Positions 11,989-59,024 of a stretch of 64,000 nucleotides of DNA are shown piece by piece. Within the stretch, counting starts at the first letter, position 1, and every line of letters begins with the position of its first letter. The stretch is from assembly GCA_965219995.1 (NCBI GenBank), contig CBDCOX010000002.1, forward strand, positions 2,080,001-2,144,000, given 5' to 3'. Position numbers and translations under genes: made by a program. This stretch comes from Candidatus Latescibacterota bacterium. GTDB lineage: Bacteria > Latescibacterota > UBA2968 > GCA-2709665. Under the pieces are notes generated by a model. It saw only the letters and a program-made list of their open reading frames with translations, was not told the origin of the DNA and made no database searches.

Positions 11989-13083
11989 TTATATCGTATA
12001 TGCTTCCAACACCTCTCTGTCGATCTCGATACCCAGACCCGGACGCTGAATCACCGGTACGTACCCGTCCACGGCCAGGATCGGCTCCATGGCGAGTCCG
12101 GTTCGGAGACGATTTTCCGTCATGTCGAATTCAAACAACGACGGGAACGGATTCAACGATTCGGGCGCGTCCGGCAGTGTCGCCTGCCAGTGTATCGTGG
12201 CGGCAAGGCGTATGCTGGTTCCCCACATGTGGGGCAGCACCCGCACGTGGTTGGCGCTTGCCATCGCGGCGACTTTCCGGCATTCCGTAAAACCGCCGGC
12301 GTCGCTGATGTCCGGCTGCACGATATCCAGCCCGCGTTTCTGGATGAGATCACGGAACGCCCACCTCCCCTGGAGCGCCTCGCCCCCTGCAACGCGCACC
12401 CCCAGCGCCTGTCTTATCTCGCGGTAGCCGGCCACGTCGTCGGTCGAGACCGGTTCCTCGTACCACAACAGATCGTTCTCGAGCAACCGACGCCCAACGT
12501 GAATGGCCGTGCCGGTATCGTACCCGCAGTTGGCATCCACCGCAAGGAGAACCGAATCGCCGATCGCACCGCGCACCGCAGCCACGTTCTTAACATCGTA
12601 GTCCACGCCGAAACCGATCTTCATCTTCACGGCCGGGAACCCCAGATCCGCGTAGGACGCCGCCTCGTCGATCAACGACCGGGCCACATCGGCCTTCCGC
12701 CGGCAGAACAGTCCGCTGGCGTATGCCGGAATGCGTTCCCGGAACGCGCCGCCCAGGAGCCGGTACACGGGCCGCTCGAGGACTCTGCCCACGATATCCC
12801 AGAGCGCGATGTCCACCGCGCTCAACTCCGAAAAACCGACCCCGCCGCGCAGATGCAGGTCGTTCCAGATGACTTCGATGTCAAATGGATCGCGGCCCAG
12901 CAGCCGGGCCCGCAGCGCCGCTTCGTTCAGATCCGCGACCCCTTCGCCCCATCCCGTAACGCCCGCGTCCGTGATGACCTCGATCACACCCGCGGTCCGT
13001 GCCGTATTCCAGGCAATCGAGTTTGCAAACGGCTCCTCAAGCGGATACCGGAGATTGTAGACCCTGATGTCGGTGATCTTCAT
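11989..13083 (-). CDS. Mandelate racemase/muconate lactonizing enzyme family protein
   Basis: GVTGWGE, AVDIALWDI, KMKIG, VDAN, WYEEP, GGE, QPD, PHMWG. Confidence 0.9.
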   Translation of the reverse strand: MKITDIRVYNLRYPLEEPFANSIAWNTARTAGVIEVITDAGVTGWGEGVADLNEAALRARLLGRDPFDIEVIWNDLHLRGGVGFSELSAVDIALWDIVGRVLERPVYRLLGGAFRERIPAYASGLFCRRKADVARSLIDEAASYADLGFPAVKMKIGFGVDYDVKNVAAVRGAIGDSVLLAVDANCGYDTGTAIHVGRRLLENDLLWYEEPVSTDDVAGYREIRQALGVRVAGGEALQGRWAFRDLIQKRGLDIVQPDISDAGGFTECRKVAAMASANHVRVLPHMWGTSIRLAATIHWQATLPDAPESLNPFPSLFEFDMTENRLRTGLAMEPILAVDGYVPVIQRPGLGIEIDREVLEAYTI

Positions 13084-13102
13084 TTCGATTCGCAATTCCG
13101 CT

Positions 13103-16404: not shown

Positions 16405-17706
16405 TTAGACGCATTGCGGCGCAAACCGTTCCAACAGGCGAATGCACGCCGCCTCCAGCCGTTCCGCGCTTCCCGGTGCGACTCGCGACCAGGGCCCGGG
16501 CACGACCTCGTATCCGCCCTCTGCATAGGCGCGGTGGATGGGAAAATATCCGATCCATCCATTCGCGTTGCCCGTAACGAACCACGCGCCCGCCCGTTTG
16601 ATCGCAAGCCCCGTCTCCACAAACACCTCCCCCGGAAGTGCGACCCAGCGCAGCCGTCCCAGAGCGATGGCCTGAATCTCGACATGAAGCGGTCCCTCGG
16701 CGAGCTTGCGCGCGAGGCGCAACGCCAGGCGGTCTTGCGAGGACGGATCCCGAACCGCGTTTTTCTCTGCCTCTTCCAACGGCGGACAGGGCCTCGCGTC
16801 CAGTTCCAGTCGATCCGTTATGTACGCAATTCCGGCGGACGGGAGCGGATCCCCCGTCTTCAGCCGGACGATTTCGTCCAGCGCGGCTCGACCCAGCGTT
16901 CGTCCGATCCGGGACACGTCGTCGAAATTGGTCGTTACGCAACTCGAGTTCACATTTCCGCACGCGCCGTTGAGAAAGAGACAGGGCGCGCCGTTGAGCC
17001 CATCTTCCACCGAGGCCGCCAGGGCCCCGGGATAGTCGGCGGACACCGGCGGGAGCAGCATGGCCACGACCGGATGCGCGGCATAGTTCACCATCACGGC
17101 CTGCGGCTGGCCGGTCAGGGCCTCCAGATAAAGAACCGACAGCGCCTCGTCCACGGCCCAGGGTACGGCAGCCTCCCCGCGCGGAGGCAGCGGACCGGCG
17201 CGGTTCAGCGTACCGTCTTTCAGGAGAATTCGCCGATGGCGGGCGACGCCCTGAACCTGCGTCGCCCCTGCATACGCCCGGACCGCGGTCCGCCCTTCCC
17301 ACGCTTCGGTAACCGTTGATGCCAGCGCATCCAGGTGTGCCTCCAGCCAATCCTGAATCCCTTCGGTTTCCCTGAATGGCGTCAGGCCAATGGTTTCAGG
17401 GGTAGAGTGGGAATGGGTGGCCGATAGCATCACGCCTTCTGCAGTCAGACCGGTCCGTTCGGAAATCCGCGAGCGCAGTTCATCGGTGAAATTCCGCCCG
17501 GGCCCCAGAATCGCATTGTCGTAACCGACCGAGTCCACCGCCAGTATCGCGACCGACGCGCAGCCGTCGTCGAGTACCAGAGCCCTGGCGTACAGGTCGT
17601 CGTGGACGCCCTCGAACGGGGCGCAAGTCCCGTTTCCGGAAGACGTCAGATAAGGTACCCACGTGGGCGGGGTCACACACCGCTTTGCCGCGCCGGCCAT
17701 CAGCAA
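16405..17706 (-). CDS. Neutral/alkaline ceramidase-like hydrolase
   Basis: GVHDDLYARALVL, SATHSHSTP, NYAAHP, SADYPG, NGACGNVN, PGEVFVETG. Confidence 0.75.
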   Translation of the reverse strand: MLMAGAAKRCVTPPTWVPYLTSSGNGTCAPFEGVHDDLYARALVLDDGCASVAILAVDSVGYDNAILGPGRNFTDELRSRISERTGLTAEGVMLSATHSHSTPETIGLTPFRETEGIQDWLEAHLDALASTVTEAWEGRTAVRAYAGATQVQGVARHRRILLKDGTLNRAGPLPPRGEAAVPWAVDEALSVLYLEALTGQPQAVMVNYAAHPVVAMLLPPVSADYPGALAASVEDGLNGAPCLFLNGACGNVNSSCVTTNFDDVSRIGRTLGRAALDEIVRLKTGDPLPSAGIAYITDRLELDARPCPPLEEAEKNAVRDPSSQDRLALRLARKLAEGPLHVEIQAIALGRLRWVALPGEVFVETGLAIKRAGAWFVTGNANGWIGYFPIHRAYAEGGYEVVPGPWSRVAPGSAERLEAACIRLLERFAPQCV

Positions 17707-17862
17707 CTTCGCGTTCCTCCATTCACCGCTGGCGCCGGGCGCCGCACGAAGTTGGCTCGTGGCCGCGCGATGCGCTCGACTGCCAGCTTGCCATCCGATC
17801 CCGGGTTGACACGACCGGTCCGAACGGATAAATTACGCGCATTCGTCAGGAGAGGAGAATCA

Positions 17863-18687
17863 ATGGATCTTTCGCTTTCCGTCCGGGTTGCCGAGAGCTT
17901 CAGCAACAAACGGGTCGTGGACATCGCGCTGCCCGATCTTGCGGGCATTGCAGGAAGGGCCGGATATGCCGCGCTGTGCATGCGCGCATCGGTTGTGGGT
18001 GTCCGGAGCGCCCCCGAAACCGTGGCGTCCGCCCGCGCACTGCTGAGGCGGGAAGGCCTTGCGGTCTCCATGGTGACCGGTGACTTCGCCGTTCCCGAAA
18101 ACGGTGACGACGGCCCGGGCTGCCTGCGGAAAATCACCCCGCACCTGGACCTGGCTCAGGCTCTGGGATGCGATCTCATTCGCGTCTGCATCAAAACGGA
18201 AGCCGACATCCCGTTCGCGCAAAAGTCCGCCGACGAAGCCGCCGACCGGAACATCCGCCTCGCCCACCAGAGCCATACGCTCAGCCTGTTCGAGACCGTG
18301 GAGGGCTCCCTGGACGTCCTCAGAAAAATAGGACGGGCCAACTTCGGACTGATCTACGAGCCGGCCAACCTCGCCCTCTGCGGCGAAGACTACGGGCCCG
18401 ACGCGCTACGAAGATTTCAACCGTACCTGTTCAACGTCTACCTGCAGAACCACGCGCCCGACCCGGAAGGCGATCGGCCGATGACCACCTGGACAAGAGG
18501 TACCGTGATGTCGATTCTACGTCCTCTGGATGCACCCGGAGGCATCGACTTCGGCAGCGTCTTCGAGGGACTGCACGCAATTTCCTACTGCGGCTGCGTC
18601 ACCGTACACCAGGCATTCGGCGGGCGTCTGGCCCCGGACGAAGCCGCCGCCCGATCCGCAAGATACCTCAATTCGTTCATCGATTAG
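17863..18687 (+). CDS. Sugar phosphate isomerase/epimerase (AP endonuclease 2 TIM barrel)
   Basis: Start at ATG after AGGAG; DLIRV, AHQSH, NFGLIYEPANL, GGIDF. Confidence 0.75.
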   Translation: MDLSLSVRVAESFSNKRVVDIALPDLAGIAGRAGYAALCMRASVVGVRSAPETVASARALLRREGLAVSMVTGDFAVPENGDDGPGCLRKITPHLDLAQALGCDLIRVCIKTEADIPFAQKSADEAADRNIRLAHQSHTLSLFETVEGSLDVLRKIGRANFGLIYEPANLALCGEDYGPDALRRFQPYLFNVYLQNHAPDPEGDRPMTTWTRGTVMSILRPLDAPGGIDFGSVFEGLHAISYCGCVTVHQAFGGRLAPDEAAARSARYLNSFID

Positions 18688-19091
18688 TGGCGGCGTCGGG
18701 AGCCGGCTGTCGCTTTCCGCTGCTTCTCAAGTGCCCCCTTCCGCACGTATTCGGCGGTGATTTCGTGTTCGATTCCGCCCCTGACGTTGAACCGGCCGAC
18801 CACCGCCATTTCCACCGGCGCACAGACCTGAACCAGATCGTCCAGAATCCTGTTTGTCACGTCTTCGAAAAATACGCCCCTGTCGCGAAACGACCTGAAA
18901 TAGTACTTGAGCGACTTGAGCTCCACGCAATGCTCGTCCGGAACGTAACGGACCGATATGGTGGCAAAGTCGGGCTGCCCCGTCAGGGGACACAACGACG
19001 TGAATTCCCGGCACGTGAATTCGATCGTGTACTGCCGGCCCGGACGCGGATTTTCGAACACGTCCAGGATTTCGCCAGCCTCATCCTGCAA
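18684..19091 (-). CDS. queF: NADPH-dependent preQ0 reductase, unimodular (catalytic copy)
   Basis: EFTSLCPLTGQPDFA, VELKSLKYY, FFEDVTNRILDDL, FNVRGGI; TTG start with AGGAGG RBS. Confidence 0.88.
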   Translation of the reverse strand: MQDEAGEILDVFENPRPGRQYTIEFTCREFTSLCPLTGQPDFATISVRYVPDEHCVELKSLKYYFRSFRDRGVFFEDVTNRILDDLVQVCAPVEMAVVGRFNVRGGIEHEITAEYVRKGALEKQRKATAGSRRRH

Positions 19092-19461
19092 TCCCGCCCC
19101 CTCCTGAAATCGGCCGCGCCCGCGGCCAGGCCGAATCCGCGGTCACGGTTGCCGCGATTCCTCCCCGTACCGCGAACTCGCCAACCACCTTCATCGTCAC
19201 GGGGTGGCACGCCGCGACCAGATCATCCAGAATCTCATTGACCGCGGCCTCGTTCGACACCGCCTGATTCCTGTATGTTCCCAGATACCGCTTGAGCGAC
19301 ACGGTCTCAAGACACCGGGCGCCCGGCACGTAGCGGATCGTGACCGTAGCGAACACCGGTTCACTGGTCTCCCGATACACGGCCGTGAATTCGGGGAAGA
19401 CGAACTCGATCGTATACGGTCTTTCGGGCCGGGGGTTTTCCACCGTCTTCAAATCCACCAC
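19081..19461 (-). CDS. QueF-like T-fold paralog lacking catalytic Cys/Asp
   Basis: Aligns without gaps to the neighbouring QueF; EFTAVYRETSEPVFA replaces EFTSLCPLTGQPDFA. Confidence 0.8.
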   Translation of the reverse strand: MVDLKTVENPRPERPYTIEFVFPEFTAVYRETSEPVFATVTIRYVPGARCLETVSLKRYLGTYRNQAVSNEAAVNEILDDLVAACHPVTMKVVGEFAVRGGIAATVTADSAWPRARPISGGGGIAG

Positions 19462-19527
19462 GACTCTCCATGATCGCGATGCGAACCGCTTCGCGGCCGA
19501 TGCAACGGACCCGATCCGCCGTCGACA

Positions 19528-20523
19528 TCAGAACCTGGGCACGGCCACGGGTTTGCCCGAGCGCACCGATTCGAAGAGCGCCACGCAGATTCCGGCCGTC
19601 CGCACGGACTGCTCCAGATCCACCTGCGGTTCCGTGCCGTTTTCTATCGCCTGAAGCAGGTCTTCGATCAGCTTCCGCCGGCTGTCGCGGCCGTCGTCCA
19701 CGACATCAATGGGCGCCCATTTTCGGGTGTGCAGATCCGACACCAGGCGGGCGGGAGGCGCCTGGGCGGTGAGAAACGTCCTGCGCGTACCGTATATCTG
19801 CACGTTGCGAAAACCGGGCCGGGCCGACCCCATGGTCGTCAACGTCTTGGCCACACATCCGTTCTCGAACCGGATGATTCCCACCACGCAATCGGTCACG
19901 TCCAGGCCATGCGATCCGGCGGATATGGCGTTTCCGTAAGCGGACACCTCTGCCGCCGGGGAGTCGATAATCCACTGGATCACGTCCACGGGGTGGATGC
20001 TGCCGCCGGCCGCCGCGTTATAGTTCGGCCCCAGTCCGCCTCGCCATCCCTCCTGGAACAGATCCAGGTGGTTCGAGATATAGTCCGCTTCGGCGTAGAA
20101 CACCTGCCCGAACGCCTGCGCCGCAACCTGGCGTTTCAACTCCTGAAACGTCTCGTCGAACCGGATCTGGCATCCGTGCGACACCTTCCGTCCCGCTTGG
20201 CGGGACGTCCGGACGATTCTCTCGATATCCTCGAAGGAGGTGGCCAGCGGCTTCTCCACGAGCACGTGCTTCCCGGAGGCCAGCATCTCAACGGCCGGGT
20301 CGGCGTGCAAATGGTCGGGAGTACAGATCGAGACCACGTCGACGTCGTCCAGACCGGCGAGGTCGCGGTAATCCGTATACCGCCGCTCCACGCCGTACTC
20401 CTCCCCGATCTGATCGAGCAACTTCCCGTTGAGGTCGCAAATCGCCGTTACCGCCGCCCCGGCTTCGCGGTACGCAACGATATGCCCCGTGCCCACGCCC
20501 AGTCCGATTACCGCCGCGCTCAT
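19528..20523 (-). CDS. Gfo/Idh/MocA family oxidoreductase
   Basis: AVIGLGVG, ICTPDHLH, KHVLVEKP, IHPVD. Confidence 0.9.
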   Translation of the reverse strand: MSAAVIGLGVGTGHIVAYREAGAAVTAICDLNGKLLDQIGEEYGVERRYTDYRDLAGLDDVDVVSICTPDHLHADPAVEMLASGKHVLVEKPLATSFEDIERIVRTSRQAGRKVSHGCQIRFDETFQELKRQVAAQAFGQVFYAEADYISNHLDLFQEGWRGGLGPNYNAAAGGSIHPVDVIQWIIDSPAAEVSAYGNAISAGSHGLDVTDCVVGIIRFENGCVAKTLTTMGSARPGFRNVQIYGTRRTFLTAQAPPARLVSDLHTRKWAPIDVVDDGRDSRRKLIEDLLQAIENGTEPQVDLEQSVRTAGICVALFESVRSGKPVAVPRF

Positions 20524-20611
20524 TGCCACGCGTCAGACCTCCACATGGAAATTCGTCGCGCCATTCTCGCGACGCAACGCACCTGCAGTACGGATATTCC
20601 GCCGTCAATCT

Positions 20612-21796
20612 TCAGCTTCGCCCCGGCACAATCGGCACGAGACTGGCCCCCGATGGCCTCGGCCCACGGGGCCTGATCGGCAGGCGCTCGTACGAACGGT
20701 ACCGGACGTCGAGATGCGGTGTCTCCACCCTTACGTGGCCTTTGTGGCGGGAGTCCATCAGCGCATCCAGGGCTCCGCTCACCAGGAGCGTGCGCTCTAC
20801 CGGGTACGGCGGGTTGCCGGTAAGGAAGAGTTCGTGGATGTTTCTGCCGAGATAGCTGAAATGGGCATGGGGATCGTCAGGCAAAAATACTTCCATTGCC
20901 CGTACGCCGTTCTGCTCGCGTCCGGCGTACCCGAACCCTTGCGTGTATCCGTTCAACATAAGCGTGGCGGCCTTCAACCCGTCGGCGTATTCCAGCAGAA
21001 AAACCGCCGGGTCCGGGCAGTGGGGTTCCATTGCTCCCGCGGCTTTCGCCTCGATGGGTTCGCGCGCGGCATCGGCCAGCTCGCGGGACCACCGCCCCTC
21101 GTCTCCCGCCCGCCAGACGTCATCGCCCTCGAGGCACTGCACAGCGACGATACCGGTCTCGCCACCCCGTCTGCGTTCGGTCATACACTGCAACAGCTCG
21201 AGCGCGTGGAACCCGTACGAGTCGAGGCCCGAATACCCGATTGACAGCGCTTCAGACAGCGGCGTATCCAGATCGTATTCGAGATACGGATTCCTCCACG
21301 CCAGCGGCACGGACGAACCGGCCAGATAAGGTACTTCCAGCACCTGCGCCCGGTCGTACATCCACTTCGAATTCGCCCAGTCATAGGCCAGGTGTTTGTC
21401 GTTGAACACGGGTACGGACCGGCCGGACGTGGCGAACACCCCGCATACCTGCTCGAAAAAGAACCGGCGCGGGTACATGTGCTGCTGCTTTTCGTTCCAG
21501 GCGTAGTCCCCGTGCTCGCCGATCATCAGCACGCCGTCAACCGCCAGTTCCCCTCCGCCCAGCGTCAATGCCTTCGGAATGCTGTTGTAGACCGGCACCC
21601 CGTGTTCCTTCGCGAGTTCGAGGCCGACATCTTTCTCATGAACCTGGTCCATGTACATCGACGCGACCTCCACCTGCGGCGGTATCAACCCGTCGTCGGA
21701 TGGGAACCCCTTCAGAAACTTCGTTACGATGACATCCGCATGGGACCGCGCATACCAGGTTGTCACGATTGCCGCGATCTTCTTTGTCCGGGACAC
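20612..21796 (-). CDS. Conserved hypothetical protein, Gfo/Idh/MocA-like
   Basis: SHADVI, VDGVLMIGEHGDY, VFNDKHL, AGSSVP, YGFHALE, PYPVERTLL; start codon estimated. Confidence 0.7.
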   Translation of the reverse strand: MSRTKKIAAIVTTWYARSHADVIVTKFLKGFPSDDGLIPPQVEVASMYMDQVHEKDVGLELAKEHGVPVYNSIPKALTLGGGELAVDGVLMIGEHGDYAWNEKQQHMYPRRFFFEQVCGVFATSGRSVPVFNDKHLAYDWANSKWMYDRAQVLEVPYLAGSSVPLAWRNPYLEYDLDTPLSEALSIGYSGLDSYGFHALELLQCMTERRRGGETGIVAVQCLEGDDVWRAGDEGRWSRELADAAREPIEAKAAGAMEPHCPDPAVFLLEYADGLKAATLMLNGYTQGFGYAGREQNGVRAMEVFLPDDPHAHFSYLGRNIHELFLTGNPPYPVERTLLVSGALDALMDSRHKGHVRVETPHLDVRYRSYERLPIRPRGPRPSGASLVPIVPGRS

Positions 21797-22085
21797 GGGA
21801 CACCCGCCTTTCTGCCCGTCAGTCGAACACGATGGCCGCCTGTAGAATAACTCTTCCAAGGGGTGCGTGGGACGTCCGAACGTAGTTGATGGGGAAAGAA
21901 CATCCCGGTCCGTCGTCCGATCCGCGAGGCAAATATGGGAATCACCAAAATCGATGTCAAGGTGAAATCAACTTCTCAGGCAGGCGGCAACTCCCGCGAC
22001 TTGCGGCTTGATTTTCGGGCATGGATCGTCTATTTTGGTGGCGCAGGAAGGCGTGCCCCATACAGACCCCCTCGGGATGCTCAAT

Positions 22086-23273
22086 ATGGCCTACGGCGGC
22101 ATCAAATCCTGGTTGGAGGACGAACTGGAATCCATCCGGGAGAACGGCCTCTACAAGACAGAAACGCGGATCGCTACGCCCCAGAACACGCTGATCAGGA
22201 CCCCGGACGGCGAAGCGATCAATTTCTGCGCCAACAACTACCTGGGGCTTGCCAACCATCCGGAGATCGCGGAAGCCGCGGCGGAGGGATTGGATGCATA
22301 CGGATACGGCATGGCGTCGGTACGCTTCATCTGCGGTACGCAGGACCTGCACACGTCCCTGGAACGCCGCATCTCGGAGTTTCTCGATACGGAAGACACC
22401 ATCCTCTACACGTCCTGCTTCGACGCCAACGCCGGGCTGTTCGAGACCCTCTTCGGACCCGAAGACGCTGTGATCAGCGACGCACTGAACCATGCCAGCA
22501 TCATCGACGGCATCCGGCTCTGCAAGGCGCGGCGAAGCATCTATCGCCACGCCGACATGCCGGATCTGGAAGACCGGCTCAAGGACGCGGCGGACGCGCG
22601 TTTCCGGGTGGTCGCCACCGACGGCGTGTTTTCCATGCACGGCGACGTCGCGCCGCTCAAGGAGATCTGCCGCCTCGCGGACGCCCACGACGCGCTGGTG
22701 ATGGTGGACGATTCCCATGCGACCGGATTCCTGGGCGAGAACGGCCGCGGCACCCCTGAGTTCTGTGGCGTTGAGAACCGGATCGATATCCTGACCAGCA
22801 CGCTGGGAAAGGCCCTTGGAGGCGCCTCGGGCGGATTTACGACGGGGCGGAGAGAAATCGTCGAGTACCTGCGGCAGCGCTCCCGCCCCTACCTGTTTTC
22901 CAATACGCTGGCGCCCCCGATCGTCGCGGGCGGATCGAAAGCGCTGGAACTCGTGCAGACGCGTCCGGAATTCCGGCTGGCCCTGATGAAAAACACCCGA
23001 TACTTCAGGAAGACCATGGGGGTACGGGGATTCCTCATTCCGGAGGGCGTCCACCCCATCGTCCCGATCATGCTCGGCGATGAGCAGAAGACGGTGCGCA
23101 TGGCCCGGGCCATGAACCGGCGCGGCATCTTCGTGGTGGGATTCAGCTATCCCGTGGTGCCCAAAGGCGAAGCCCGCATCCGCGTACAGATCTCCGCGGC
23201 CCACACGCGAAATCAGCTGGACCGCGCCATCGATACGTTCGTGGACGTCGGCACCGCCCTCGGCGTCATATGA
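22086..23273 (+). CDS. kbl: Glycine C-acetyltransferase (2-amino-3-ketobutyrate CoA ligase)
   Basis: [59 protein letters not shown]. Confidence 0.93.
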
Positions 23274-23353
23274 CCCATCAGGTCATTACTTTTTTAAAAT
23301 ACTTGAAAATAAAGTGGTTGCGACGCCAACCGTAACGTCAGGAGGACACGCTA

Positions 23354-24121
23354 ATGGACACGCCCCAGCAGCAACCCCTCCGTGACCGCATCGCCATCGT
23401 GACCGGGGCGGGACAGGGGATCGGCCGGGCCGTCGCCCAGACTCTGGCCAGACACGGCGCCCACCTCGTCGTGAACGACCTCGACGAATCCAACGCCAAA
23501 CGGACGGCCGACGAGCTGGGATCGGCGTTCACCAGGGCCTTCCACTTTCAGGCCGACGTCACGGACGCCCCCGGGGTGCAGGCCATGGTGGACTGGACGG
23601 CGGATACCTTCGGCGCGGTCCACATCCTGGTCAACAACGCGGGCATTCTCTTTCCGACCAGCGTCATCGACATCGACGAAGACGAATGGGACCGCGTCAT
23701 CGACGTCAACCTCAAGGGCGCTTTTCTCTGCTCGAAGGCCGTCCTCCCGCAAATGCGCGACGCGGGATGGGGCCGCATCGTCAATTTCTCCTCTACGGCC
23801 GGCAAGAACGTCAGCACCGTGGGCGGCGCGCATTACACGGCCGCAAAGGCCGGCGTGCTGGGGTTCACGCGCCACCTCGCCAGGGAAGTCGCGCCTTACA
23901 ACATTACGGTCAATGCGGTCTGTCCGGGACTGATCGATACCGAAATGGTCCGCGGTACCATCGACGAAGAACGGACACGCGCCTACGCGCGCAGCTTCCC
24001 GGTCCCCCGCCTGGGCAGACCGGAGGAAGTCGCCGACCTGGTGGCCTTTCTCGCCTCGGACCAGGCCGCCTATATCACCGGCGCATCGCTGGACATCAAC
24101 GGCGGCGACCTGATGATATAG
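23354..24121 (+). CDS. SDR family oxidoreductase (FabG-like)
   Basis: TGAGQGIG, NNAG, YTAAK, NAVCPG. Confidence 0.92.
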   Translation: MDTPQQQPLRDRIAIVTGAGQGIGRAVAQTLARHGAHLVVNDLDESNAKRTADELGSAFTRAFHFQADVTDAPGVQAMVDWTADTFGAVHILVNNAGILFPTSVIDIDEDEWDRVIDVNLKGAFLCSKAVLPQMRDAGWGRIVNFSSTAGKNVSTVGGAHYTAAKAGVLGFTRHLAREVAPYNITVNAVCPGLIDTEMVRGTIDEERTRAYARSFPVPRLGRPEEVADLVAFLASDQAAYITGASLDINGGDLMI

Positions 24122-24171
24122 GCCGCCATTGCCGCAAGTTGTCTCGTACGGCTTCCTGGAGTATCCGGACA

Positions 24172-25332
24172 ATGCAGGTTGCGAGCGTAAAAGCCTTCCT
24201 GGTTCATCCGGGCAGCGCGAAGAACTGGCTGTTTGTCAAGGTGGTGACGGACACCGGCATCCACGGATGGGGCGAGGCCTACACCCAGCACGACAGGGAC
24301 CGGAGCGTCCAGGTCCACGTGGAAGAACTGGGTCGGTACCTGATTGGACGGTCGCCGTTCGATATCCGGCATTTCACGTACGTGGCATACACGGACTTCG
24401 CAAGCAAGAGGGGCGCGATGGACCTCTACGCCGCTATCAGCGCCATCGAACAGGCCCTGTGGGATATCGTCGGCAAGTCCCTGAACCAGCCGGTCTACAA
24501 CCTGCTCGGCGGCGCGTGCAGGACCCGAATCAAGGTCTATGCCAATGGATGGGGAAGCTGGTACGATCCCGGAAAGGAACTGGAACAACTCGCCGAACGG
24601 GCCGCGGCGGTGGTGTCGAAAGGGTTCACCGCGCTCAAGTTCGACCCCTTTCCCGGTCCCTGGCGCAGCATCATCGACGTGAGGGACGAGCAAACCGCAG
24701 TGGACCGTGTGGGAGCCGTCCGCGAGGCCGTGGGCCCCGACGTGGATATCCTGGTGGAAGTGCACCGGAGGCTTTCTCCGGCGCATGCCATCCGCGTAGC
24801 CCGTCGCATGGAGGCATTCAACCCCTTCTGGTACGAGGAACCCGTTTCCTCCCGCGACCTCGACGGGCTGGCGGAAGCCAGACGGAACATCAACATCCCG
24901 GTTGTCACAGGCGAAGAACTCTATACGAAGGTTGAGTTCCGCGACGTGTTCGAGAAACGCGCCGCCGACGTCATCAACCCGGACGTCTGCAACTGCGGCG
25001 GGATTCTGGAGCTTCGCGAAATCGCGGCCATGGCCGAGCCCTGCCACGTCGCGGTCTCGCCCCACAATTACAACAGTACGACGGTAGGGCTGGCCGCCAC
25101 GATGCAGGCGGCCGCCGGCATGCCCAACTTCCTGATTACCGAATACTTCGTGAATTTCGAAACCGCGGGCAACGACATCGCCGTCGACCCCTTCGTCGTT
25201 GAAGACGGTTACATCACCCTACCCACGGCGCCCGGCCTGGGCATCGACCTGGACGAGGACGCGCTCGCCGGCTATCCTTTCCAACCGTTCCCTGCAAGAA
25301 AACTGCGGCATCCGTGTGACGAAGGACCGTAG
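24172..25332 (+). CDS. Galactonate dehydratase-like enolase-superfamily enzyme
   Basis: NWLFVKV.TDTGIHGWGE, KFDPF, VEVHRRL, WYEEP, GEE, SPHN; true start ATG 24172. Confidence 0.88.
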   Translation: MQVASVKAFLVHPGSAKNWLFVKVVTDTGIHGWGEAYTQHDRDRSVQVHVEELGRYLIGRSPFDIRHFTYVAYTDFASKRGAMDLYAAISAIEQALWDIVGKSLNQPVYNLLGGACRTRIKVYANGWGSWYDPGKELEQLAERAAAVVSKGFTALKFDPFPGPWRSIIDVRDEQTAVDRVGAVREAVGPDVDILVEVHRRLSPAHAIRVARRMEAFNPFWYEEPVSSRDLDGLAEARRNINIPVVTGEELYTKVEFRDVFEKRAADVINPDVCNCGGILELREIAAMAEPCHVAVSPHNYNSTTVGLAATMQAAAGMPNFLITEYFVNFETAGNDIAVDPFVVEDGYITLPTAPGLGIDLDEDALAGYPFQPFPARKLRHPCDEGP

Positions 25333-29969: not shown

Positions 29970-32864
29970 ATGATTCTCTTGTCAAGATCTCCCGGAAGCC
30001 GTTTTGTGATCCCTGCGTTCGTCTTGCTTTATTACGGCGGCTTGGCTTATGGATCGCCACCGATTGAGTACGTCAAGGAACACCACCCGCCGAAGCTGGA
30101 AGGCGTGCTGGCACGGATTCGAAAACACTGGACGGCACAAAAGCGGGCGCTGGCCAAGGCGACGGCGAGACAATATGGGGCTGCAAAAATCGTTGGTGAA
30201 AACATCACTGTCGTATTGGTGCCTCGCCATGGGAGACTTTCAGTTAGCATAGATTTCGCGGCTCTTTCCGACATCGGCGTTAGCATTGTCGCCCAATCGC
30301 GGCATCTATTGAAGGTGTCTACACCCATAGCAGCACTCGAGAGTTTGACACATGTGGACGGCGTTCAATTCGTGCGGTTGCCCATAGAACCCAACTTACG
30401 CATCGTTGAAAGCGAGGGCGTGGAACGCATCGGAGCGCAATTTTACTTAAGTGAGGGATTTTCGGGTCGGGAAGTCAAAGTCGGGGTTATCGATGTCGGT
30501 TTTGTCGGGGTACCTTCACTGCAGAATCGCGGCGAATTGCCGGCTTTGTCTTATCGGGATTTCACTGGCGAAGGGATTTTTACCGAAACAGAGCATGGAT
30601 CGGCCTGTGCTGAAATTGTATACGACATTGCTCCAAACGCTGAAATTGTCCTATATAAGGTGAGCGGCATGGTGAGTTTGGAGAACGCTAAGGATGCTGC
30701 AATCCAGGACGGCATGGATATTGTCACTGTTTCTTTGGGATGGGATTTCGCAAGGGGTTTTGGTGACGGTACAGGTATTGCGTGCGAAATTGTAGATGAC
30801 GCGTTTCAGAATAATGTTCTGTGGGTCAATGCTGCCGGAAACGAGGCACAGAGCAAGATCATTGCAGAATTAAACCCGGATGGCGATGGATTTCACAACT
30901 TTGATGCAGACGACCGGATCGTCAAATTAAAAAATCGTCAAACAGGTGATTTGTATTTGTCAACAGGAGATAAAGTAACAGCGGTGTTGACATGGAACGA
31001 ATGGCCGCTTACGTCTCACGACTACGATCTTCTGCTCGCAAAGATCAGGACAGACGGCACATCCGAGGTAGTTGCACTCGCAGACACCAAACAACGTCAG
31101 TCAGAGCCCTTCGAAGGTCTTGAATATGAGATTCGAGACTCGGGAACCTACGGTTTGGCGATTTGGAGGGCACCGGACGCGAAAGTTACCGAGTTCAAGT
31201 TGCTCAGCACAACCCATGATCTCGACGGGCCTGTATCCACTTCGGGCTCATTGAGTATACCGGGCGACGCGCGGGGCGCGCTGACCGTGGGGGCGATGCA
31301 TCACCGGGAATGGAGGACAGGACCGATTGCGGCGTACAGTTCTCGCGGTCCAACTGTTGATGGACGAACCAAGCCGGACCTCGTTGGTCCTGCTGGCGTT
31401 CTCACGATAAGCTATGGAGAATCAGGATACCACGGTACATCAGCGGCGACGCCGCACGTAGCCGGGGCCGCGGCGCTCCTGAAATCCTCCGATCCGGTGC
31501 ACTATAACGCCCAGAATCTATATGACGCGCTGGTGCAATCGACGGTCGATATGGGAGATCGGGGCCCCGATAACGTCTATGGCCACGGGCGATTGGATCT
31601 GTCGTTGGTTCCTCCCATTGGCAAGCCCGCTATGGAACTTTCACGTGACGTGCTGGATTTCGGCGCGGTTCTGTTGGGGTCGTCGCACACCCGGAACCTG
31701 AATATTGTCAACCCCGGTCGTGCGTCTCTTGTGATCACAAATATCCAGTTGCCGACCAGTGAGTACCGCATCTCAGAACCGACCTTTACCGTCGCGCCAG
31801 GGCGCAGCAATCGGATTGCCGTCACGTTTTCGCCCCAAAGCGAGGGTGATCAGTCTGGCAGCATGACCATTCTGAGCAATTTGCCACGGACCACCGTAAC
31901 GCTCCGGGCGCGAGGCGTGCGGCAAGCCGTTGTTCCGGTTCCTCGGATTGCGGTCGATGGGTCAGCGCGCAGTTTTGGCGTTGTCGACGTCGGCGGTTCG
32001 AAGTCCCAGACGGTAACGGTCACGAATACCGGTGACGCTCCCCTGTCGATTACGGATATCACCGCCAGCGACGGACAGATTAGCGCATCACCCACGCAAT
32101 TCTCGATTCCGCCAAAGCAGAACGGCTACTTTACGATTCGATTCGAGCCGACCCGCTCCGGTGACCTGTCGGCGCGTGTGACCATTTACAGTGACGATTC
32201 TAATTCACCTGCGGTCAGTTTTCCCGTTGCAGGAACGGGACGCCGATCCGCAACCGCGTCCTTTACGTTGTCTCTTGTCGTTGACGCTCCGCAGAATCAG
32301 GGCGTCTATGCCGCGCCTGCGGACGGCGTGATCGCTGTCGAAATACAAGGGCAGCGGGTGAAGGACGCCATCGGATTTCGCGCCGTGTTCGATCTTGACG
32401 CGCCGGCCCTGTCTTACAGCGGCTTTGAAATCGGAAACAGCATTCCGAACGGGCATTCCCCGGGCCACTATTATCCCTCCGCCGATTCTTCCTCGGTGGA
32501 AGTGACCGCGGCGTCATTCGGCGGAAGAATCGCACAATCAACGGCGAAACTGGGCACGATAAGGTTTGCCGTCGCGGATGCCTTTCAGTCGGGTCAGATC
32601 CGATTGAGTTACGCGCGCATCCGGCGGTCCGGTCAATTCGAAGCGTTTGCCGCTCCCGTGGTCCTGCGTTTTTCACGACAACGAGGACCCAGGGGAGACT
32701 TCGACGGCGACGGGACCGTCGGCTTTGCCGATTTTGTGCAGTTTGCCGGCGCGTTCGGTCTGAGTCGCGGTGATGCGGGGTATGACGCCAAGTTCGATCT
32801 GGATGGAAATGGCATGATCGGATTCAGTGATTTTCTCGTCTTTGCCGGCAGCTTTGGTACGTAG
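29970..32864 (+). CDS. Secreted S8 subtilase with two ASH/choice-of-anchor-D Ig domains, a cohesin-like domain and a dockerin-like tail
   Basis: Triad VIDVGF / HGSACA / GTSAATPHVAG; NAAGN; LDFGAV and SFGVV Ig domains; GDFDGDGTVGFADF...FDLDGNGMIGFSDF. Confidence 0.85.
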   Translation: MILLSRSPGSRFVIPAFVLLYYGGLAYGSPPIEYVKEHHPPKLEGVLARIRKHWTAQKRALAKATARQYGAAKIVGENITVVLVPRHGRLSVSIDFAALSDIGVSIVAQSRHLLKVSTPIAALESLTHVDGVQFVRLPIEPNLRIVESEGVERIGAQFYLSEGFSGREVKVGVIDVGFVGVPSLQNRGELPALSYRDFTGEGIFTETEHGSACAEIVYDIAPNAEIVLYKVSGMVSLENAKDAAIQDGMDIVTVSLGWDFARGFGDGTGIACEIVDDAFQNNVLWVNAAGNEAQSKIIAELNPDGDGFHNFDADDRIVKLKNRQTGDLYLSTGDKVTAVLTWNEWPLTSHDYDLLLAKIRTDGTSEVVALADTKQRQSEPFEGLEYEIRDSGTYGLAIWRAPDAKVTEFKLLSTTHDLDGPVSTSGSLSIPGDARGALTVGAMHHREWRTGPIAAYSSRGPTVDGRTKPDLVGPAGVLTISYGESGYHGTSAATPHVAGAAALLKSSDPVHYNAQNLYDALVQSTVDMGDRGPDNVYGHGRLDLSLVPPIGKPAMELSRDVLDFGAVLLGSSHTRNLNIVNPGRASLVITNIQLPTSEYRISEPTFTVAPGRSNRIAVTFSPQSEGDQSGSMTILSNLPRTTVTLRARGVRQAVVPVPRIAVDGSARSFGVVDVGGSKSQTVTVTNTGDAPLSITDITASDGQISASPTQFSIPPKQNGYFTIRFEPTRSGDLSARVTIYSDDSNSPAVSFPVAGTGRRSATASFTLSLVVDAPQNQGVYAAPADGVIAVEIQGQRVKDAIGFRAVFDLDAPALSYSGFEIGNSIPNGHSPGHYYPSADSSSVEVTAASFGGRIAQSTAKLGTIRFAVADAFQSGQIRLSYARIRRSGQFEAFAAPVVLRFSRQRGPRGDFDGDGTVGFADFVQFAGAFGLSRGDAGYDAKFDLDGNGMIGFSDFLVFAGSFGT

Positions 32865-47433: not shown

Positions 47434-47643
47434 GTGAGAAGGTCATCCAGAAAAGACATCGATAAAATCTTCAAGGAAGGTACATTGATCGACAAAGCCT
47501 TGAGGGATGCCGTTCGAGAAGCACTCTTGTATCATAAACGCAACGGAAATCCAATCGCTGATTGGCGAGACGGAAAGGTGGTGTGGATTCCGGCGGATCA
47601 GATCGAAGTGGACCAGGATGCCGACGAGGAATCCGAGAGATGA
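47434..47643 (+). CDS. Small protein paired with the zeta-like ATPase (putative antitoxin/partner)
   Basis: IDKALRDAVREALLYHKRNGNPIADWRDGKVVWIP; directly follows the ATPase; start estimated. Confidence 0.65.
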   Translation: MRRSSRKDIDKIFKEGTLIDKALRDAVREALLYHKRNGNPIADWRDGKVVWIPADQIEVDQDADEESER

Positions 47644-49082
47644 ATCCCGCCAACCTGCTCTTCATTCTCTCCGACCAGCACACGCGGGACATCACGGGCT
47701 GCTACGGCCACCCGGAGGTGCGGACGCCGAACATCGACAGCCTCGCCCAACGCGGGACGCGCTTCACCAGCGCCTACACCAACTGTCCCATCTGCGTGCC
47801 GGCCCGCGCCTCACTGGCAACCGGACGATACGTCCATCAGACCGGAAACTGGGACAACGCCTTCGCGTATGACGGCAGTGTGCCGAGTTGGGGGCACCGC
47901 CTCAGGGAGCAGGGATTCCAGGTCGACTCGATCGGGAAACTGCACTTTCGCGCGCAGGATGACGACAACGGATTTTCAGAAGAAATCGATCCGCTGCACG
48001 TGGTGGACGGCGTGGGCGACATTCTGAGCTGCATTCGGGAACAACCGCCTTTGCGCAACAAGCGCGGCGCCATCCTCAACGCCGGCCCGGGAGACTCGAC
48101 CTACCTGAAATACGATATCTCGAACGCCGACCGGGCGTGCGCCTGGCTTGCGGAACATCGTAACGACGACCGGCCATGGGTCCTGTTTCTCTCGTTCGTC
48201 TGTCCTCACCCGCCCTACGTCGCACCGCCGGATCTCTTCGAGTCCTATTCGACCGATCGGCTTCCCTTGCCCCCCCAATGGCATCCCAATGACTGGCCCG
48301 CCCACCCGGCCATCCGGCGCTTCCGCCGGTTCTTCCATTACGACCGGCCTTTTTCCGAATCCGAATTGCGCAATCTCACCGCTGCCTACTACGGCGCATG
48401 TACTCACCTGGACCGTCAGATCGGCCGCGTATTGCAGGCACTAGACGAACAGGACCTTGCCGACACCACGCGTGTCCTCTACACATCGGACCACGGGGAA
48501 TCCCTGGGCGCCCGGGGCCTTTTCGGCAAATTCACCATGTATGAGGAGGCCGCTGGGGTGCCGCTTGTCGTCGCCGGCCCCGGCGTGCCGCAAGGACACG
48601 TTTCGCGCACGCCTGTGTCCCTGGTGGACTGCTTCCCCACCGTACTGGAATGCGCCGGCGCGACACCCGAAGGCGAACGCCTCCCCGGCCGCTCCCTCTG
48701 GCAGGTCGCGCGGAACGCCAACGAGAATCGCACGGTCTTCAGCGAATACCACGCGGTTGGCTCCCGCGATGCCGCCTACATGCTCCGCGATCGGACCTGG
48801 AAGTACATACACTACGTGGAAGAGCCGCCGCAGCTCTTCAACCTCGAAGACGACCCGCGAGAAACGAACGATCTCGCGGCGTCTCCAGGCCACCGGACCG
48901 TGTTGAATTCGTTCGAGCGCCGGCTGCGCGAACTTCTGGATCCCGATGCCACGGATGCGCGCGCCAAGGCGGACCAGCTGGCGAAAATCGCGTCTTTCGG
49001 CGGCGCAGAAGCCGTTCGCAGCCGGGGCGCATTCGACAACTCGCCGGTGCCCGGCGAAGCGCCGGCCTTCCGGGTCCACTGA
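47640..49082 (+). CDS. Sulfatase (choline sulfatase-like, Cys-type)
   Basis: SDQH, CVPAR (CxPxR), GKLH, PHPP, TSDHG; ATGA overlap with the upstream gene. Confidence 0.92.
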   Translation: MNPANLLFILSDQHTRDITGCYGHPEVRTPNIDSLAQRGTRFTSAYTNCPICVPARASLATGRYVHQTGNWDNAFAYDGSVPSWGHRLREQGFQVDSIGKLHFRAQDDDNGFSEEIDPLHVVDGVGDILSCIREQPPLRNKRGAILNAGPGDSTYLKYDISNADRACAWLAEHRNDDRPWVLFLSFVCPHPPYVAPPDLFESYSTDRLPLPPQWHPNDWPAHPAIRRFRRFFHYDRPFSESELRNLTAAYYGACTHLDRQIGRVLQALDEQDLADTTRVLYTSDHGESLGARGLFGKFTMYEEAAGVPLVVAGPGVPQGHVSRTPVSLVDCFPTVLECAGATPEGERLPGRSLWQVARNANENRTVFSEYHAVGSRDAAYMLRDRTWKYIHYVEEPPQLFNLEDDPRETNDLAASPGHRTVLNSFERRLRELLDPDATDARAKADQLAKIASFGGAEAVRSRGAFDNSPVPGEAPAFRVH

Positions 49083-56437: not shown

Positions 56438-57520
56438 ATGTCGGACATTCCGTATCTCATCGCAGACAGCCACCTGGATCTCGGTTTCAGCGCCATTCAG
56501 GTCAATCGTGACCTCACACAGCCGGCCGCGACCGTACGCGTCCACGACGCCGAGCCCGTGATGCGCAGCTTCGGAAGCTGTACCGTCACCTTTCCGGAAC
56601 TTCGCCGGGGCAACGTCGGCATCATCTTCGGCACCATGATGTCCCGTACCGACCCCAACGACCGCTGGACACGCACGGGCATGTACTGCCAGGACCAGTG
56701 CCACGGCGTGGGACGGGGCCACCTGGCCTACTACCAGGCGATGGAGCGCGAAGGCGTGATTCGCTTCATCCGCAATTCGCGGGACCTGGACGAAACGGTG
56801 GCCGCGTGGGAGAACCCGGCCCCCGATACGCCAATCGGCCTGGTAGTGGCCATGGAAAGCGCCGACCCCATCCTGGACCCGTCCCAGGTCCCCGAATGGT
56901 ACGATCTCGGGCTCCGAATCGTGAGCATTTCCCACTACGGCGTCAGTTCCTACTGCCACGGAACGGGCACCGAGGGCGGCCTGCTGGAACGCGGCAAACC
57001 CCTGCTCGCCGCCCTGAAGGAAGCGGGGATTATCGTTGATCTGACCCACACCACTGACCAGGCCTTCTGGGAAATCCTGGACGTCTACGACGGTCCCGTG
57101 GCCGCTTCTCACCACAACTGCCGCGCCCTCACCCCCGGACAGCGCCAGCTCACCGACGCCATGATCGGCGCCATCATCCAACGAGGCGGCGTGATAGGCG
57201 CTGCATTCGATGCCTGGATGCTGGATCCGGACTGGAACCGCGACATCCCATGTTGGGCGCAGAACACAAAGGCCACCCTCGAAACCGTAGCCAATCACAT
57301 CGACCACGTCTGTCAACTCGCCGGCAACGCACGGCACGCCGGCATCGGCACCGATCTGGACGGCGGATTCGGACAGGAACAGTCCCCTCGGGACCTCAAC
57401 ACCATCGCCGACCTTCAGAACCTGGTCGGCATCCTCCAGCGCCGTGGCTACAGGGAACCCGACGTTCGCAACATCCTCTCCGGCAACTGGGTCCGATTCC
57501 TCAAGGAAGTCTGGGGATAG
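56438..57520 (+). CDS. Membrane dipeptidase (M19) family, copy 2
   Basis: ADSHLD, MESADPI, DLTH, ASHHN, IGTDLDGG. Confidence 0.9.
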   Translation: MSDIPYLIADSHLDLGFSAIQVNRDLTQPAATVRVHDAEPVMRSFGSCTVTFPELRRGNVGIIFGTMMSRTDPNDRWTRTGMYCQDQCHGVGRGHLAYYQAMEREGVIRFIRNSRDLDETVAAWENPAPDTPIGLVVAMESADPILDPSQVPEWYDLGLRIVSISHYGVSSYCHGTGTEGGLLERGKPLLAALKEAGIIVDLTHTTDQAFWEILDVYDGPVAASHHNCRALTPGQRQLTDAMIGAIIQRGGVIGAAFDAWMLDPDWNRDIPCWAQNTKATLETVANHIDHVCQLAGNARHAGIGTDLDGGFGQEQSPRDLNTIADLQNLVGILQRRGYREPDVRNILSGNWVRFLKEVWG

Positions 57521-57554
57521 GCGATCCACAACGGAACACGCAGACCTGAGCACT

Positions 57555-59024
57555 ATGTCTCCCAGACCCAATCTGCTTCTCATTACAACCGACCAGCAGC
57601 GCGGCGACTGCCTTGGATGCGACGGGCATCCGGTGCTGGAAACGCCCTACCTGGATGAACTGGCCGAGGGCGGCGCGCGATTCGATCACGCCTACACCTC
57701 CGTGCCTTCATGCACCCCCGCCCGCGCCGGTATCCTCACGGGCATGGACCAGTGGAACCACGGCCGTCTCACGATGACCGGCGCCGACCCGCTCGAGTAT
57801 CCGGCCACACTGCCCGGCGAACTCGCTCACGGGGGCTACCATACCCAGGCCGTGGGCAAAATGCATTTCCATCCCCAGCGCAGACTCTACGGTTTCCACC
57901 ATATGGTCCTGGACGAGAGCGGGCGACGACTTGGCAACTTCATCAGCGACTATCACGTTTTCTTTGAGAAACACAAAGAGGGCGAATACGGCTACCGCGA
58001 CCACAGCGTGGACTGGAACTCCTGGATGGCCCGCCCGTCGCACCTGCCCGAACACCTGCATCCCACACACTGGACGGCATCCGAAGGCATCAGGTTCCTG
58101 GAAAACCGGGACCCGACCAAACCCTTCTTTCTCTGGTTGTCTTTCGCTCGCCCGCATTCCCCGTACGACGCGCCGCAGACTTACTACGACATGTACATTG
58201 ACAACCCGCGCATTCCCGAAGCGGCCGCGGGAGCGTGGTCGGCCCGGTACGACCGGCAGATCGCGGATGTGAACGCCCCGCGCACACGCCGCACCGCCGC
58301 CGAGACCCATCGTGCGCGAGCGGCCTATTACGGCAACATTACCTTCATCGACCATCAGATCGGCCGTGTCCTGCACGAACTGCGCCGGCGCGACCCAAAG
58401 GCAGCGGCCAACACCCTGATCCTGTTCACGTCGGACCACGGCGACATGATGGGCGATCATCACCACTGGCGAAAAACCTACGCGTATGAAGGCTCCGCCC
58501 GAATCCCCTTCATCCTCAAATACCCGGACACCTGGGAAATTCACCGCAACGCGACGCTGGGCCAGCCGGTGGAACTGCGAGACGTTATGCCCACGTTCCT
58601 CGATGCCGCGGGCGTCTCCGTCCCCGAATCCGTAGACGGCCGCAGCCTGTTGAATCTCTCACGGGGCGACAGCGAACGCTGGCGGGAGTTCGTTCAGGGC
58701 GAACACACCACCTGTTACGACAGAGAACACGGTATGCAGTACGTAACCGACGGCCGGGAAAAGTACATCTGGTTCCATCATACCGGGGCCGAGCAGTTCT
58801 TCGACCTGGAAACCGACCCACTGGAGTGCATTGACCTCGCGGCCGATGCCGATCGGCAATCACGCATCGACGACTGGCGGGGACGCCTGGCCGAAGTCAA
58901 CGAAACGCGCGGCGACCCGCGGGGCCGGAACGGCGAACTCGTGCCCCAGCCCGGCGGCGCGTTGTCGCTTTCTCCCAACTACGAGAAATGGAAACAACGG
59001 GCGGAAGCGCTGGATGGCGAATAG
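57555..59024 (+). CDS. Arylsulfatase-like sulfatase (Cys-type)
   Basis: TDQQR, CTPAR, GKMHF, PHSPYD, TSDHG. Confidence 0.92.
   Translation: MSPRPNLLLITTDQQRGDCLGCDGHPVLETPYLDELAEGGARFDHAYTSVPSCTPARAGILTGMDQWNHGRLTMTGADPLEYPATLPGELAHGGYHTQAVGKMHFHPQRRLYGFHHMVLDESGRRLGNFISDYHVFFEKHKEGEYGYRDHSVDWNSWMARPSHLPEHLHPTHWTASEGIRFLENRDPTKPFFLWLSFARPHSPYDAPQTYYDMYIDNPRIPEAAAGAWSARYDRQIADVNAPRTRRTAAETHRARAAYYGNITFIDHQIGRVLHELRRRDPKAAANTLILFTSDHGDMMGDHHHWRKTYAYEGSARIPFILKYPDTWEIHRNATLGQPVELRDVMPTFLDAAGVSVPESVDGRSLLNLSRGDSERWREFVQGEHTTCYDREHGMQYVTDGREKYIWFHHTGAEQFFDLETDPLECIDLAADADRQSRIDDWRGRLAEVNETRGDPRGRNGELVPQPGGALSLSPNYEKWKQRAEALDGE

Follow-up and report, generated by a model that had tools for sequence, protein, structure and literature searches.

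A 64,000-nucleotide (nt) stretch of a Candidatus Latescibacterota genome (contig CBDCOX010000002.1 of assembly GCA_965219995.1, positions 2,080,001 to 2,144,000; hereafter the window) encodes two overlapping homologs of the preQ0 reductase QueF, and the upstream one is devoid of the catalytic residues. The reading that we favour, with about even confidence, is that the two products form a heteromeric QueF in which the upstream protein serves as a non-catalytic partner subunit, an arrangement that would have been reached by a route separate from that of the canonical bimodular enzyme. No enzyme class other than QueF is known to reduce nitriles to amines. Its published descriptions present a homo-oligomer whose chains all come from a single gene and are either unimodular or bimodular (PMC13740343; PMC5372742, both as far as their text was accessible). 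No account of an active QueF accompanied by a Cys-less paralog was found in the literature searched, which did not extend to subscription journals. The pair comprises the following features:

19081..19461, minus strand: upstream "dead" QueF paralog (up), 126 amino acids (aa), GTG start; based on the open reading frame (ORF) call, Pfam QueF and TIGR03139 matches, and residue mapping to PDB entry 4F8B
18684..19091, minus strand: downstream catalytic-type unimodular QueF (dn), 135 aa, TTG start; based on the ORF call, Pfam, TIGR03139 and 4F8B mapping
19081..19091, minus strand: overlap of the stop of the upstream gene with the TTG start of the downstream gene, 11 nt

The preliminary description of this locus had reported two overlapping unimodular QueF genes that align without gaps with 55 of 107 residues identical. 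Both ORFs were recovered, and a recount of the ungapped core gave the same figure; a BLASTP alignment extends to 58 identities over 122 positions (48%, E 1e-37). Both proteins match the Pfam family QueF (PF14489; E 2.8e-31 for the downstream and 1.7e-25 for the upstream copy) and exceed the 86.9-bit cut-off of the NCBIfam equivalog for preQ(1) synthase, TIGR03139, with 165.1 and 117.2 bits, respectively. Against TIGR03138, which represents the bimodular enzyme and has a cut-off of 293.45 bits, the two window proteins score 56.1 and 30.8 bits. Like B. subtilis QueF (PDB 4F8B), each copy is thus a single T-fold module of the unimodular or YkvM type. The Pfam scan gave no match of the upstream copy to the QueF_N family (PF14819), and its interpretation as a QueF_N module was rejected on the basis of this result and the PF14489 match. 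A stop codon parts the two ORFs, which therefore yield two polypeptides and not one chain of approximately 280 aa. The 11-nt overlap is consistent with translational coupling. A GGAG sequence lies 4 nt ahead of the GTG start of the upstream gene, and the position aligned with the TTG start of the downstream gene holds a start codon in all 33 related loci described below (ATG in 19, TTG in 14). This support for the TTG start is partly circular, because the start chosen in each related locus was the start codon nearest to that of the window; distances between genes in these loci are approximate for the same reason.

The downstream copy aligns with 4F8B without gaps over 117 residues (E 1.1e-31). 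In the numbering used for B. subtilis QueF in the literature, it has Cys55 (C34 in the window protein), Asp62 (D41), Val77-Glu78, Phe95 and Glu97 (E76), and its QueF motif, E-L-K-S-L-K-Y-Y, fully agrees with the consensus E(S/L)K(S/A)hK(L/Y)(Y/F/W). The alignment confirmed the catalytic Cys and Asp, the ELKSLK and the FFE sequence that had been noticed earlier in this copy, which has all defining residues of unimodular QueF and belongs to that subfamily. Cys55 and Asp62 are both present, and the motif E-L-K/R-S-L-K is intact, in all 34 orthologs (here and below, the 33 related loci plus the window); the Cys and Asp also occur in each of the 120 closest homologs. QueF variants of Cys190 (to Ala or Ser) and of Asp197 are inactive, although the Cys variants bind the substrate non-covalently (PMC13740343). 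Compared with other unimodular enzymes, the downstream copy differs by Phe or Met in place of His96 and by the lack of the protective Cys99, whose equivalent is Val in 33 of the 34 orthologs and Leu in one.

The replacement of His96 by Phe, which turns the usual FHE into FFE, is a true observation, as first reported, but represents ordinary family variation. Position 96 is Phe in 16 and Met in 18 of the orthologs and never His, and the 120 closest homologs carry His (61), Phe (33), Tyr (23) or Met (3). According to a 2026 review, His96 contacts preQ0 via its backbone amide, the H96F variant of G. kaustophilus QueF has reduced activity but is still active, and the H229A variant of E. coli QueF still forms the covalent adduct (PMC13740343). 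In the accessible text of PMC5372742, His96 is not among the features that define the QueF family. Judged by these residues, FFE poses no obstacle to activity. Since Cys and Asp are kept, Phe96 is common among homologs, and the H96F and H229A variants retain function, the downstream copy very probably is a working preQ0 reductase. A His does occur in all 34 orthologs at the column equivalent to Ile130 of the B. subtilis enzyme (H109 in the window). Among 336 homologs with Cys and Asp, His was found 33 times at this column, in 28 cases together with Phe96. The idea that the catalytic His has been relocated from position 96 to this column is weakened, however, by proteins with His96, which often have a His one column earlier.

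The upstream copy also aligns with 4F8B without gaps (100 residues, E 3.5e-17), and the substitutions initially proposed for it were all upheld: C>Y, D>V, ELKS>ETVS and FHE>SNE, with both Glu residues kept and the frame intact. In the window protein, Cys55 is replaced by Tyr (Y29), Asp62 by Val (V36) and Phe33 by Val. The motif reads E-T-V-S-L-K-R-Y, in which Lys80 has become Val and seven of the eight positions are kept, and residues 95 to 97 are S-N-E with Ser for Phe95. Across the 34 orthologs, the position of Cys55 is occupied by Tyr (30), Leu (2), Arg (1) or His (1), that of Asp62 by Val (15), Ile (18) or Phe (1), and that of Lys80 by Val (16) or Met (18). Phe33 is replaced by Val (29), Thr (4) or Ile (1), the residue at position 95 is Ser (14), Pro (2), Phe (12) or Tyr (6), and His96 has given way to Tyr (27), Asn (3) or Cys (4). 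In contrast to these losses, Glu78 (E52 in the window), Ser81-Leu82-Lys83 and Glu97 (E71) are invariant, position 79 is always polar (Thr in 15, Ser in one, Gln in 18), and 36 columns in total are invariant over the 34 copies. By the residue criteria of PMC5372742, the upstream protein is a QueF homolog and not a QueF enzyme, and it is predicted to be inactive. Because Glu78 and Ser81-Leu82-Lys83 are kept while Cys55, Asp62 and Phe33 are lost, it appears to have retained those parts that a neighbouring subunit would lend and to have let its own pocket degrade.

Relatives of the upstream copy were sought at E <= 0.001, which gave 217 among 244 candidates. Among the best 120 of these, 28 have the dead signature (Cys to Tyr, Leu or His; Asp to Val, Ile or Phe; Lys80 to Val or Met) and 92 have Cys and Asp. 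Peptide patterns specific to the dead copy, derived from an alignment of such copies, were additionally scanned over one genome per species. They hit 44 stretches, of which 33 encode a relative. These 33 loci stem from metagenome-assembled genomes (MAGs) labelled Latescibacterota or Latescibacteria (28), Gemmatimonadota or Gemmatimonadetes (4) and "uncultured bacterium" (1). In each of them, two QueF ORFs share a strand; Cys and Asp are missing from the upstream ORF and present in the downstream one. The ORFs overlap in 15 loci, by 4 nt in 11 of them, and lie 13-128 nt apart in the other 18. Unimodular QueF is a homodecamer of one gene product (PMC5372742); here, the catalytic gene is in every case paired with a paralog that has neither Cys nor Asp. 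In a tree of 106 sequences (34 upstream copies, 34 downstream copies and 38 other QueFs), which leaves the root and the exact donor lineage open, the upstream copies form one clade (SH-aLRT 99) with subclades of 15, 18 and 1 sequences that mirror the subclades of the downstream copies. This topology indicates one old tandem duplication followed by co-divergence of the two genes.

The upstream gene has been maintained by selection. Ratios of nonsynonymous to synonymous divergence (dN/dS) were computed according to Nei and Gojobori for the 232 of 561 pairs in which both genes had 0.05 < dS < 1.5. The median is 0.231 for the upstream copy (range 0.10-0.77) and 0.152 for the downstream copy (range 0.04-0.46). 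In ten separate sister pairs, the upstream genes together show 102 nonsynonymous differences at 2507 sites against 120 synonymous differences at 820 sites, which corresponds to a pooled pN/pS of 0.28 (Fisher p 2.5e-22; 0.16 for the downstream genes). The upstream gene is thus under purifying selection, beside its partner throughout the lineage. The preliminary description had named a strain-specific dead copy with dN/dS near 1 as the outcome that would speak against a function; the pair is instead conserved in order and strand in 33 of 33 loci, and the median ratio is far below 1. A functionless duplicate in decay could account for the loss of both residues essential for QueF activity and for the faster evolution of the upstream copy, whose dN is approximately 1.5 times that of the downstream copy in comparisons with the window. 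Yet all 34 genomes have it in an intact frame, even though their lineages have diverged to saturation at synonymous positions, and neither the 36 invariant columns nor the pooled pN/pS would be expected of a pseudogene. Together with the conservation of the pair and the low dN/dS, these results rule out such decay for practical purposes, and we regard it as extremely improbable.

A natural fusion of the two types of module further links them. A profile of the dead copy was compared with 1.84 billion cluster representatives and gave 4306 matches at E <= 0.001. The best 150 of these proteins contain 154 domain matches, of which 143 have Cys and Asp. The exceptions are the dead family's representative (P0028), a separate Cys-less protein (P0252), the N-terminal module of a canonical bimodular QueF (P0273) and a protein designated P0243, besides single substitutions in P0332, P0377, P0379 and P0382 and matches in which one or both positions are not covered (P0310, twice, and P0339). 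P0243, the second-best match to the profile, has 304 aa and two QueF modules. It occurs on 8 contigs, the longest of 46.8 kb, and a 93% identical protein of 305 aa, P0391, on two. In P0243, Thr and Val stand in for Cys and Asp in the N-terminal module, whose motif reads L-N-L-L-S-F-R-K, and Cys, Asp and V-E-L-K-S-L-K are present in the C-terminal one. The two modules each match PF14489, and the N-terminal one has no QueF_N match. It scores 62.5 bits with the profile of the upstream copy versus 32.5 bits with that of the downstream copy, is 40% identical to the upstream and 29% identical to the downstream protein of the window, and joins the clade of upstream copies in a tree of 72 sequences (support 100/98). 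The C-terminal module prefers the profile of the downstream copy (130.8 versus 99.7 bits) and is 50% identical to the downstream protein. With caution, P0243 and P0391 may be read from these affinities as a Rosetta-stone fusion, in which a dead-type module precedes an active-type one just as the two genes follow each other. An earlier search for fused relatives of the upstream copy had found none at E <= 0.001 among 591 candidates of 222-2000 aa, which is weak evidence, as the profile search later retrieved P0243. The AlphaFold2 model of P0243 (mean pLDDT 36.6 from a two-row alignment) is unusable; a deeper alignment is impossible because MAFFT places both upstream and downstream sequences on the C-terminal module.

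Some further observations concern these proteins. The modules of P0243 and P0391 are joined by a linker of approximately 45 aa, and both proteins are rich in Lys, Asn and Ile; the source organism probably has a low GC content. P0252 (117 aa, on a single 1.2-kb contig) has Tyr for Cys, Cys for Asp and Met for Lys80. It groups with an ordinary active QueF outside the clade of upstream copies (98/92), and its loss of the Cys therefore looks independent.

How the two proteins may work together is suggested by the architecture of the family. QueF active sites are situated at interfaces between subunits or domains of T-fold units, where Val77, Glu78 and Ser79 of the motif helix contact preQ0, and in bimodular QueF a Cys-less N-terminal module gives the motif while the C-terminal module gives Cys and Glu (PMC5372742; PMC13740343). 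The accessible text of both sources thus agrees with the preliminary description on interfacial active sites and on the Cys-less module coming first. In the heteromeric QueF proposed here, the downstream protein would carry the chemistry with its thioimide-forming Cys, proton-relay Asp, substrate-anchoring Glu97 and intact NADPH motif. The upstream protein would be a non-catalytic paralog of single origin by tandem duplication, in which Cys55, Asp62 and Lys80 disappeared and the pocket was reshaped, whereas the T-fold core and the motif helix were preserved. Because QueF pockets are completed by the motif helix of a neighbouring unit, we infer that the upstream protein packs against the downstream one and contributes Val77/Glu78/polar-79 and Ser81-Leu82-Lys83 to its pocket in trans. 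Each interface of the two proteins would then hold one active site, as in bimodular QueF, but the layout would be the outcome of one-sided decay in a duplicated gene and not of complementary losses in a single chain.

In its way of working, the pair would resemble bimodular QueF (YqcD type; E. coli, V. cholerae, PDB 3BP1) most closely, yet it does not belong to that subfamily. A Cys-less module likewise precedes a catalytic module, one site per pair of T-folds would match, and the overall arrangement recurs in the fused P0243. However, there are two genes instead of one chain, and the upstream copy belongs to PF14489 and not to QueF_N (PF14819). The analogy drawn at the outset is imperfect as regards the losses. 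These are complementary in the bimodular enzyme and asymmetric here, where the downstream copy keeps everything, including its motif, and the upstream copy has lost Cys, Asp and Lys80. Cys99/Cys236, reported to be 100% conserved in bimodular QueF, are in neither window copy, which fits an independent origin of the pair. The earlier suggestion that the bimodular layout was approached independently is strengthened by P0243 and P0391, in which a dead-type N-terminal and an active-type C-terminal module, both PF14489 and the former without QueF_N, are found in one chain. The separate proteins may bind each other, and the upstream one may act as a motif donor, a scaffold or a ligand-binding regulator.

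Several points weigh against the heteromer, or at least against simple donation of the motif. In each of the 34 orthologs the downstream copy has its own motif fully intact, whereas canonical bimodular QueF shows a decayed motif in the catalytic module (P0273, P0371). The upstream copy has no Lys80 in its NADPH motif, and it retains Glu97 in all orthologs although this residue would be useful only to its own pocket. In P0243, the N-terminal module has lost even Glu78, which is Asn, and the C-terminal module retains the whole motif; moreover, the placement of this N-terminal module depends on a branch with a length of approximately 10, so that long-branch attraction is possible. One sister pair (L007/L008) has a pN/pS of 1.05 in the upstream gene, on 8 differences. 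Furthermore, the rings of unimodular QueF are pentameric (PMC5372742), and a strict 1:1 alternation of the two proteins therefore cannot fill a ring. Rings of mixed composition, or an additional ligand site without catalytic function, would account for the points against simple motif donation. A complex prediction with residues 1-122 of the downstream and 1-112 of the upstream protein gave scores of 0.24 and 0.27 against a mark of 0.32, was run without controls, and provides no evidence either way.

Two other explanations have to be weighed against a heteromeric QueF. The upstream protein might instead be a free-standing pseudoenzyme that binds a 7-deazaguanine (preQ0, preQ1 or a guanine-like ligand) in a T-fold oligomer of its own. 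It would then buffer or sense what QueF consumes or makes, or pass it on, but would not be stably incorporated into that enzyme. We consider this unlikely, but it would be served well by the polar set for base recognition, since all 34 orthologs have Glu97 and Glu78 together with an aliphatic side chain at position 77 and a polar one at position 79. Non-covalent substrate binding by the Cys190Ala/Ser enzymes (PMC13740343) points in the same direction, the loss of Lys80 would suit a site that no longer needs NADPH, and purifying selection and co-location fit a pseudoenzyme as well as a heteromer. The stacking Phe residues, however, are gone or variable (Phe33 is Val, Thr or Ile in 34 of 34 and Phe95 is Ser or Pro in 16 of 34), and the drift of the Cys55 position through Tyr, Leu, Arg and His looks like a degraded rather than a tuned pocket. 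The fusion to a catalytic module and the 4-nt overlaps also point to a fixed stoichiometry with the downstream protein. The other explanation extends to a third gene, referred to as gene X, which lies upstream of the pair among these features:

19528..20529, minus strand: Gfo/Idh/MocA-family oxidoreductase, between gene X and the pair; Pfam PF01408 and PF02894
20612..21859, minus strand: gene X, approximately 390-415 aa, no family assignment; true start probably near codon 22-26
21932..21960, minus strand: sigma-70-like promoter match upstream of gene X, 10 of 12 positions matching

Gene X and the QueF pair might form a three-gene module with other chemistry, such as a different 7-deazapurine product or another nitrile or imine substrate, and the altered residues, including the lost Lys80 of the upstream copy, would then reflect the new function. 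Every one of the 33 loci has a homolog of gene X, 66-91% identical, ahead of the pair, whereas the other genes around the pair vary between the two deep subclades. The Gfo/Idh/MocA gene, for example, occupies its place in 15 of the 33 loci (L001-L015) and is absent from L016-L033. In these 18 loci gene X directly adjoins the pair, and in seven of them its stop overlaps the start of the upstream QueF gene by 8 nt. The product of gene X has no match in Pfam, NCBIfam or the PDB sequences. In an AlphaFold2 model, its N-terminal approximately 160 aa match Rossmann domains of the Gfo/Idh/MocA type (Foldseek, best E 4.3e-6, TM approximately 0.25). This domain thus looks like the NAD(P)-binding Gfo/Idh/MocA fold, which includes imine reductases and biliverdin reductase, a lead rather than an assignment, given the low confidence of the model (mean pLDDT 47.5, 24 rows). 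The constant absence of His96 from the downstream copy (Phe in 16, Met in 18) and its invariant His at the Ile130-equivalent column could be signs of altered chemistry as well. In addition, the window scans revealed neither a preQ1 riboswitch (no Rfam match in 17000-23500 at E <= 1) nor any other queuosine gene: queC, queD, queE, queA, queG and tgt were not found among 50 window ORFs (NCBIfam; 30 at E <= 1e-5 and 20 at E <= 1e-10), although the ORF picking was crude and the picker, based on GC content at third codon positions, missed the whole stretch of 26.7-33.1 kb. Queuosine genes are often scattered in genomes, however, and their absence from 64 kb says little. The downstream copy scores 165 bits against the 86.9 required by the preQ(1) synthase equivalog and has every QueF-defining residue, and Phe, Tyr or Met at position 96 is found in 59 of 120 close homologs. 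Gene X falls among unnamed atlas clusters that are commonest in Planctomycetota, and its relatives may extend past this lineage. On this evidence, new chemistry of a three-gene module appears distinctly improbable. A bolder extension of the heteromeric QueF, to which we likewise attach little probability, would be an obligate hetero-oligomeric nitrile reductase whose genes record the path from a single gene through a tandem duplicate with one decayed copy to a fusion. Its dead pocket and the motif of the downstream protein would then make up a second, non-covalent site for a ligand or NADPH that regulates or shares the four-electron reaction, possibly with the participation of gene X.

Two further enzymes of the queuosine and archaeosine pathways can be compared with the pair. 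QueF-L keeps the catalytic Cys and is without the NADPH motif. This archaeosine synthase of Crenarchaeota is a QueF paralog without NADPH-dependent reduction (PMC10516641, as far as accessible). The upstream copy shows the reverse pattern, with no Cys or Asp and most of the motif, and it is bacterial and paired with an active QueF. Its identification as QueF-L was rejected because it has no Cys at position 55 and seven of eight motif positions are present. Eukaryotic tRNA-guanine transglycosylase combines the catalytic QTRT1 with the non-catalytic paralog QTRT2 in the same pathway. It is an analogy only: the fold is a TIM barrel instead of a T-fold, the reaction is different, and the enzyme is eukaryotic.

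The promoter match upstream of gene X is the only site of its kind in 18000-22500, where shuffled sequences average 0.9, and at most represents a possible, weak candidate for an operon promoter. On the other side of the pair, the longest ORFs of a ceramidase-like gene (16405-17706, minus strand) and a xylose-isomerase-like TIM-barrel gene (17602-18687, plus strand) overlap divergently by approximately 100 nt. The real start of the TIM-barrel gene is probably further downstream, and at its 3' end this gene meets the stop of the downstream QueF gene convergently. Sulfatases, enolase-superfamily sugar-acid dehydratases and Gfo/Idh/MocA oxidoreductases are plentiful in the window (47562-49082, plus strand; 57444-59024, plus strand; 11989-13095, minus strand; 23686-25332, plus strand). 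This gene content suggests polysaccharide and sugar-acid catabolism. Neighbouring genes are 84-99% identical to those of two MAG loci labelled Latescibacterota (L001, L002). An ORF of 964 aa at 29970-32864 (plus strand) contains choice-of-anchor D domains and has a weak subtilase-like (mycosin) match.

An earlier family survey required Cys55, Asp62, Glu97 and the motif, and set aside sequences that lacked any of these as "non-QueF" (PMC5372742); this exclusion may be the reason why the pair went unnoticed. An atlas look-up with the upstream copy returned generic QueF clusters only. In public databases, copies that have neither the Cys nor the Asp (P0012, P0017, P0030) are named "preQ(1) synthase" or "7-cyano-7-deazaguanine reductase". 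As the dead copy also passes the TIGR03139 cut-off, this naming is a systematic over-annotation, and pathway reconstructions in these lineages count two reductases where probably one exists. If the heteromeric QueF proposed here is correct, a conserved and selected Cys-less partner gene would constitute a third QueF architecture besides the unimodular and bimodular forms. It would also represent a natural experiment on the evolution of bimodular T-fold enzymes via duplication and asymmetric decay, and would be informative about the share of a QueF active site that can come in trans, which matters for the engineering of QueF as a biocatalyst.

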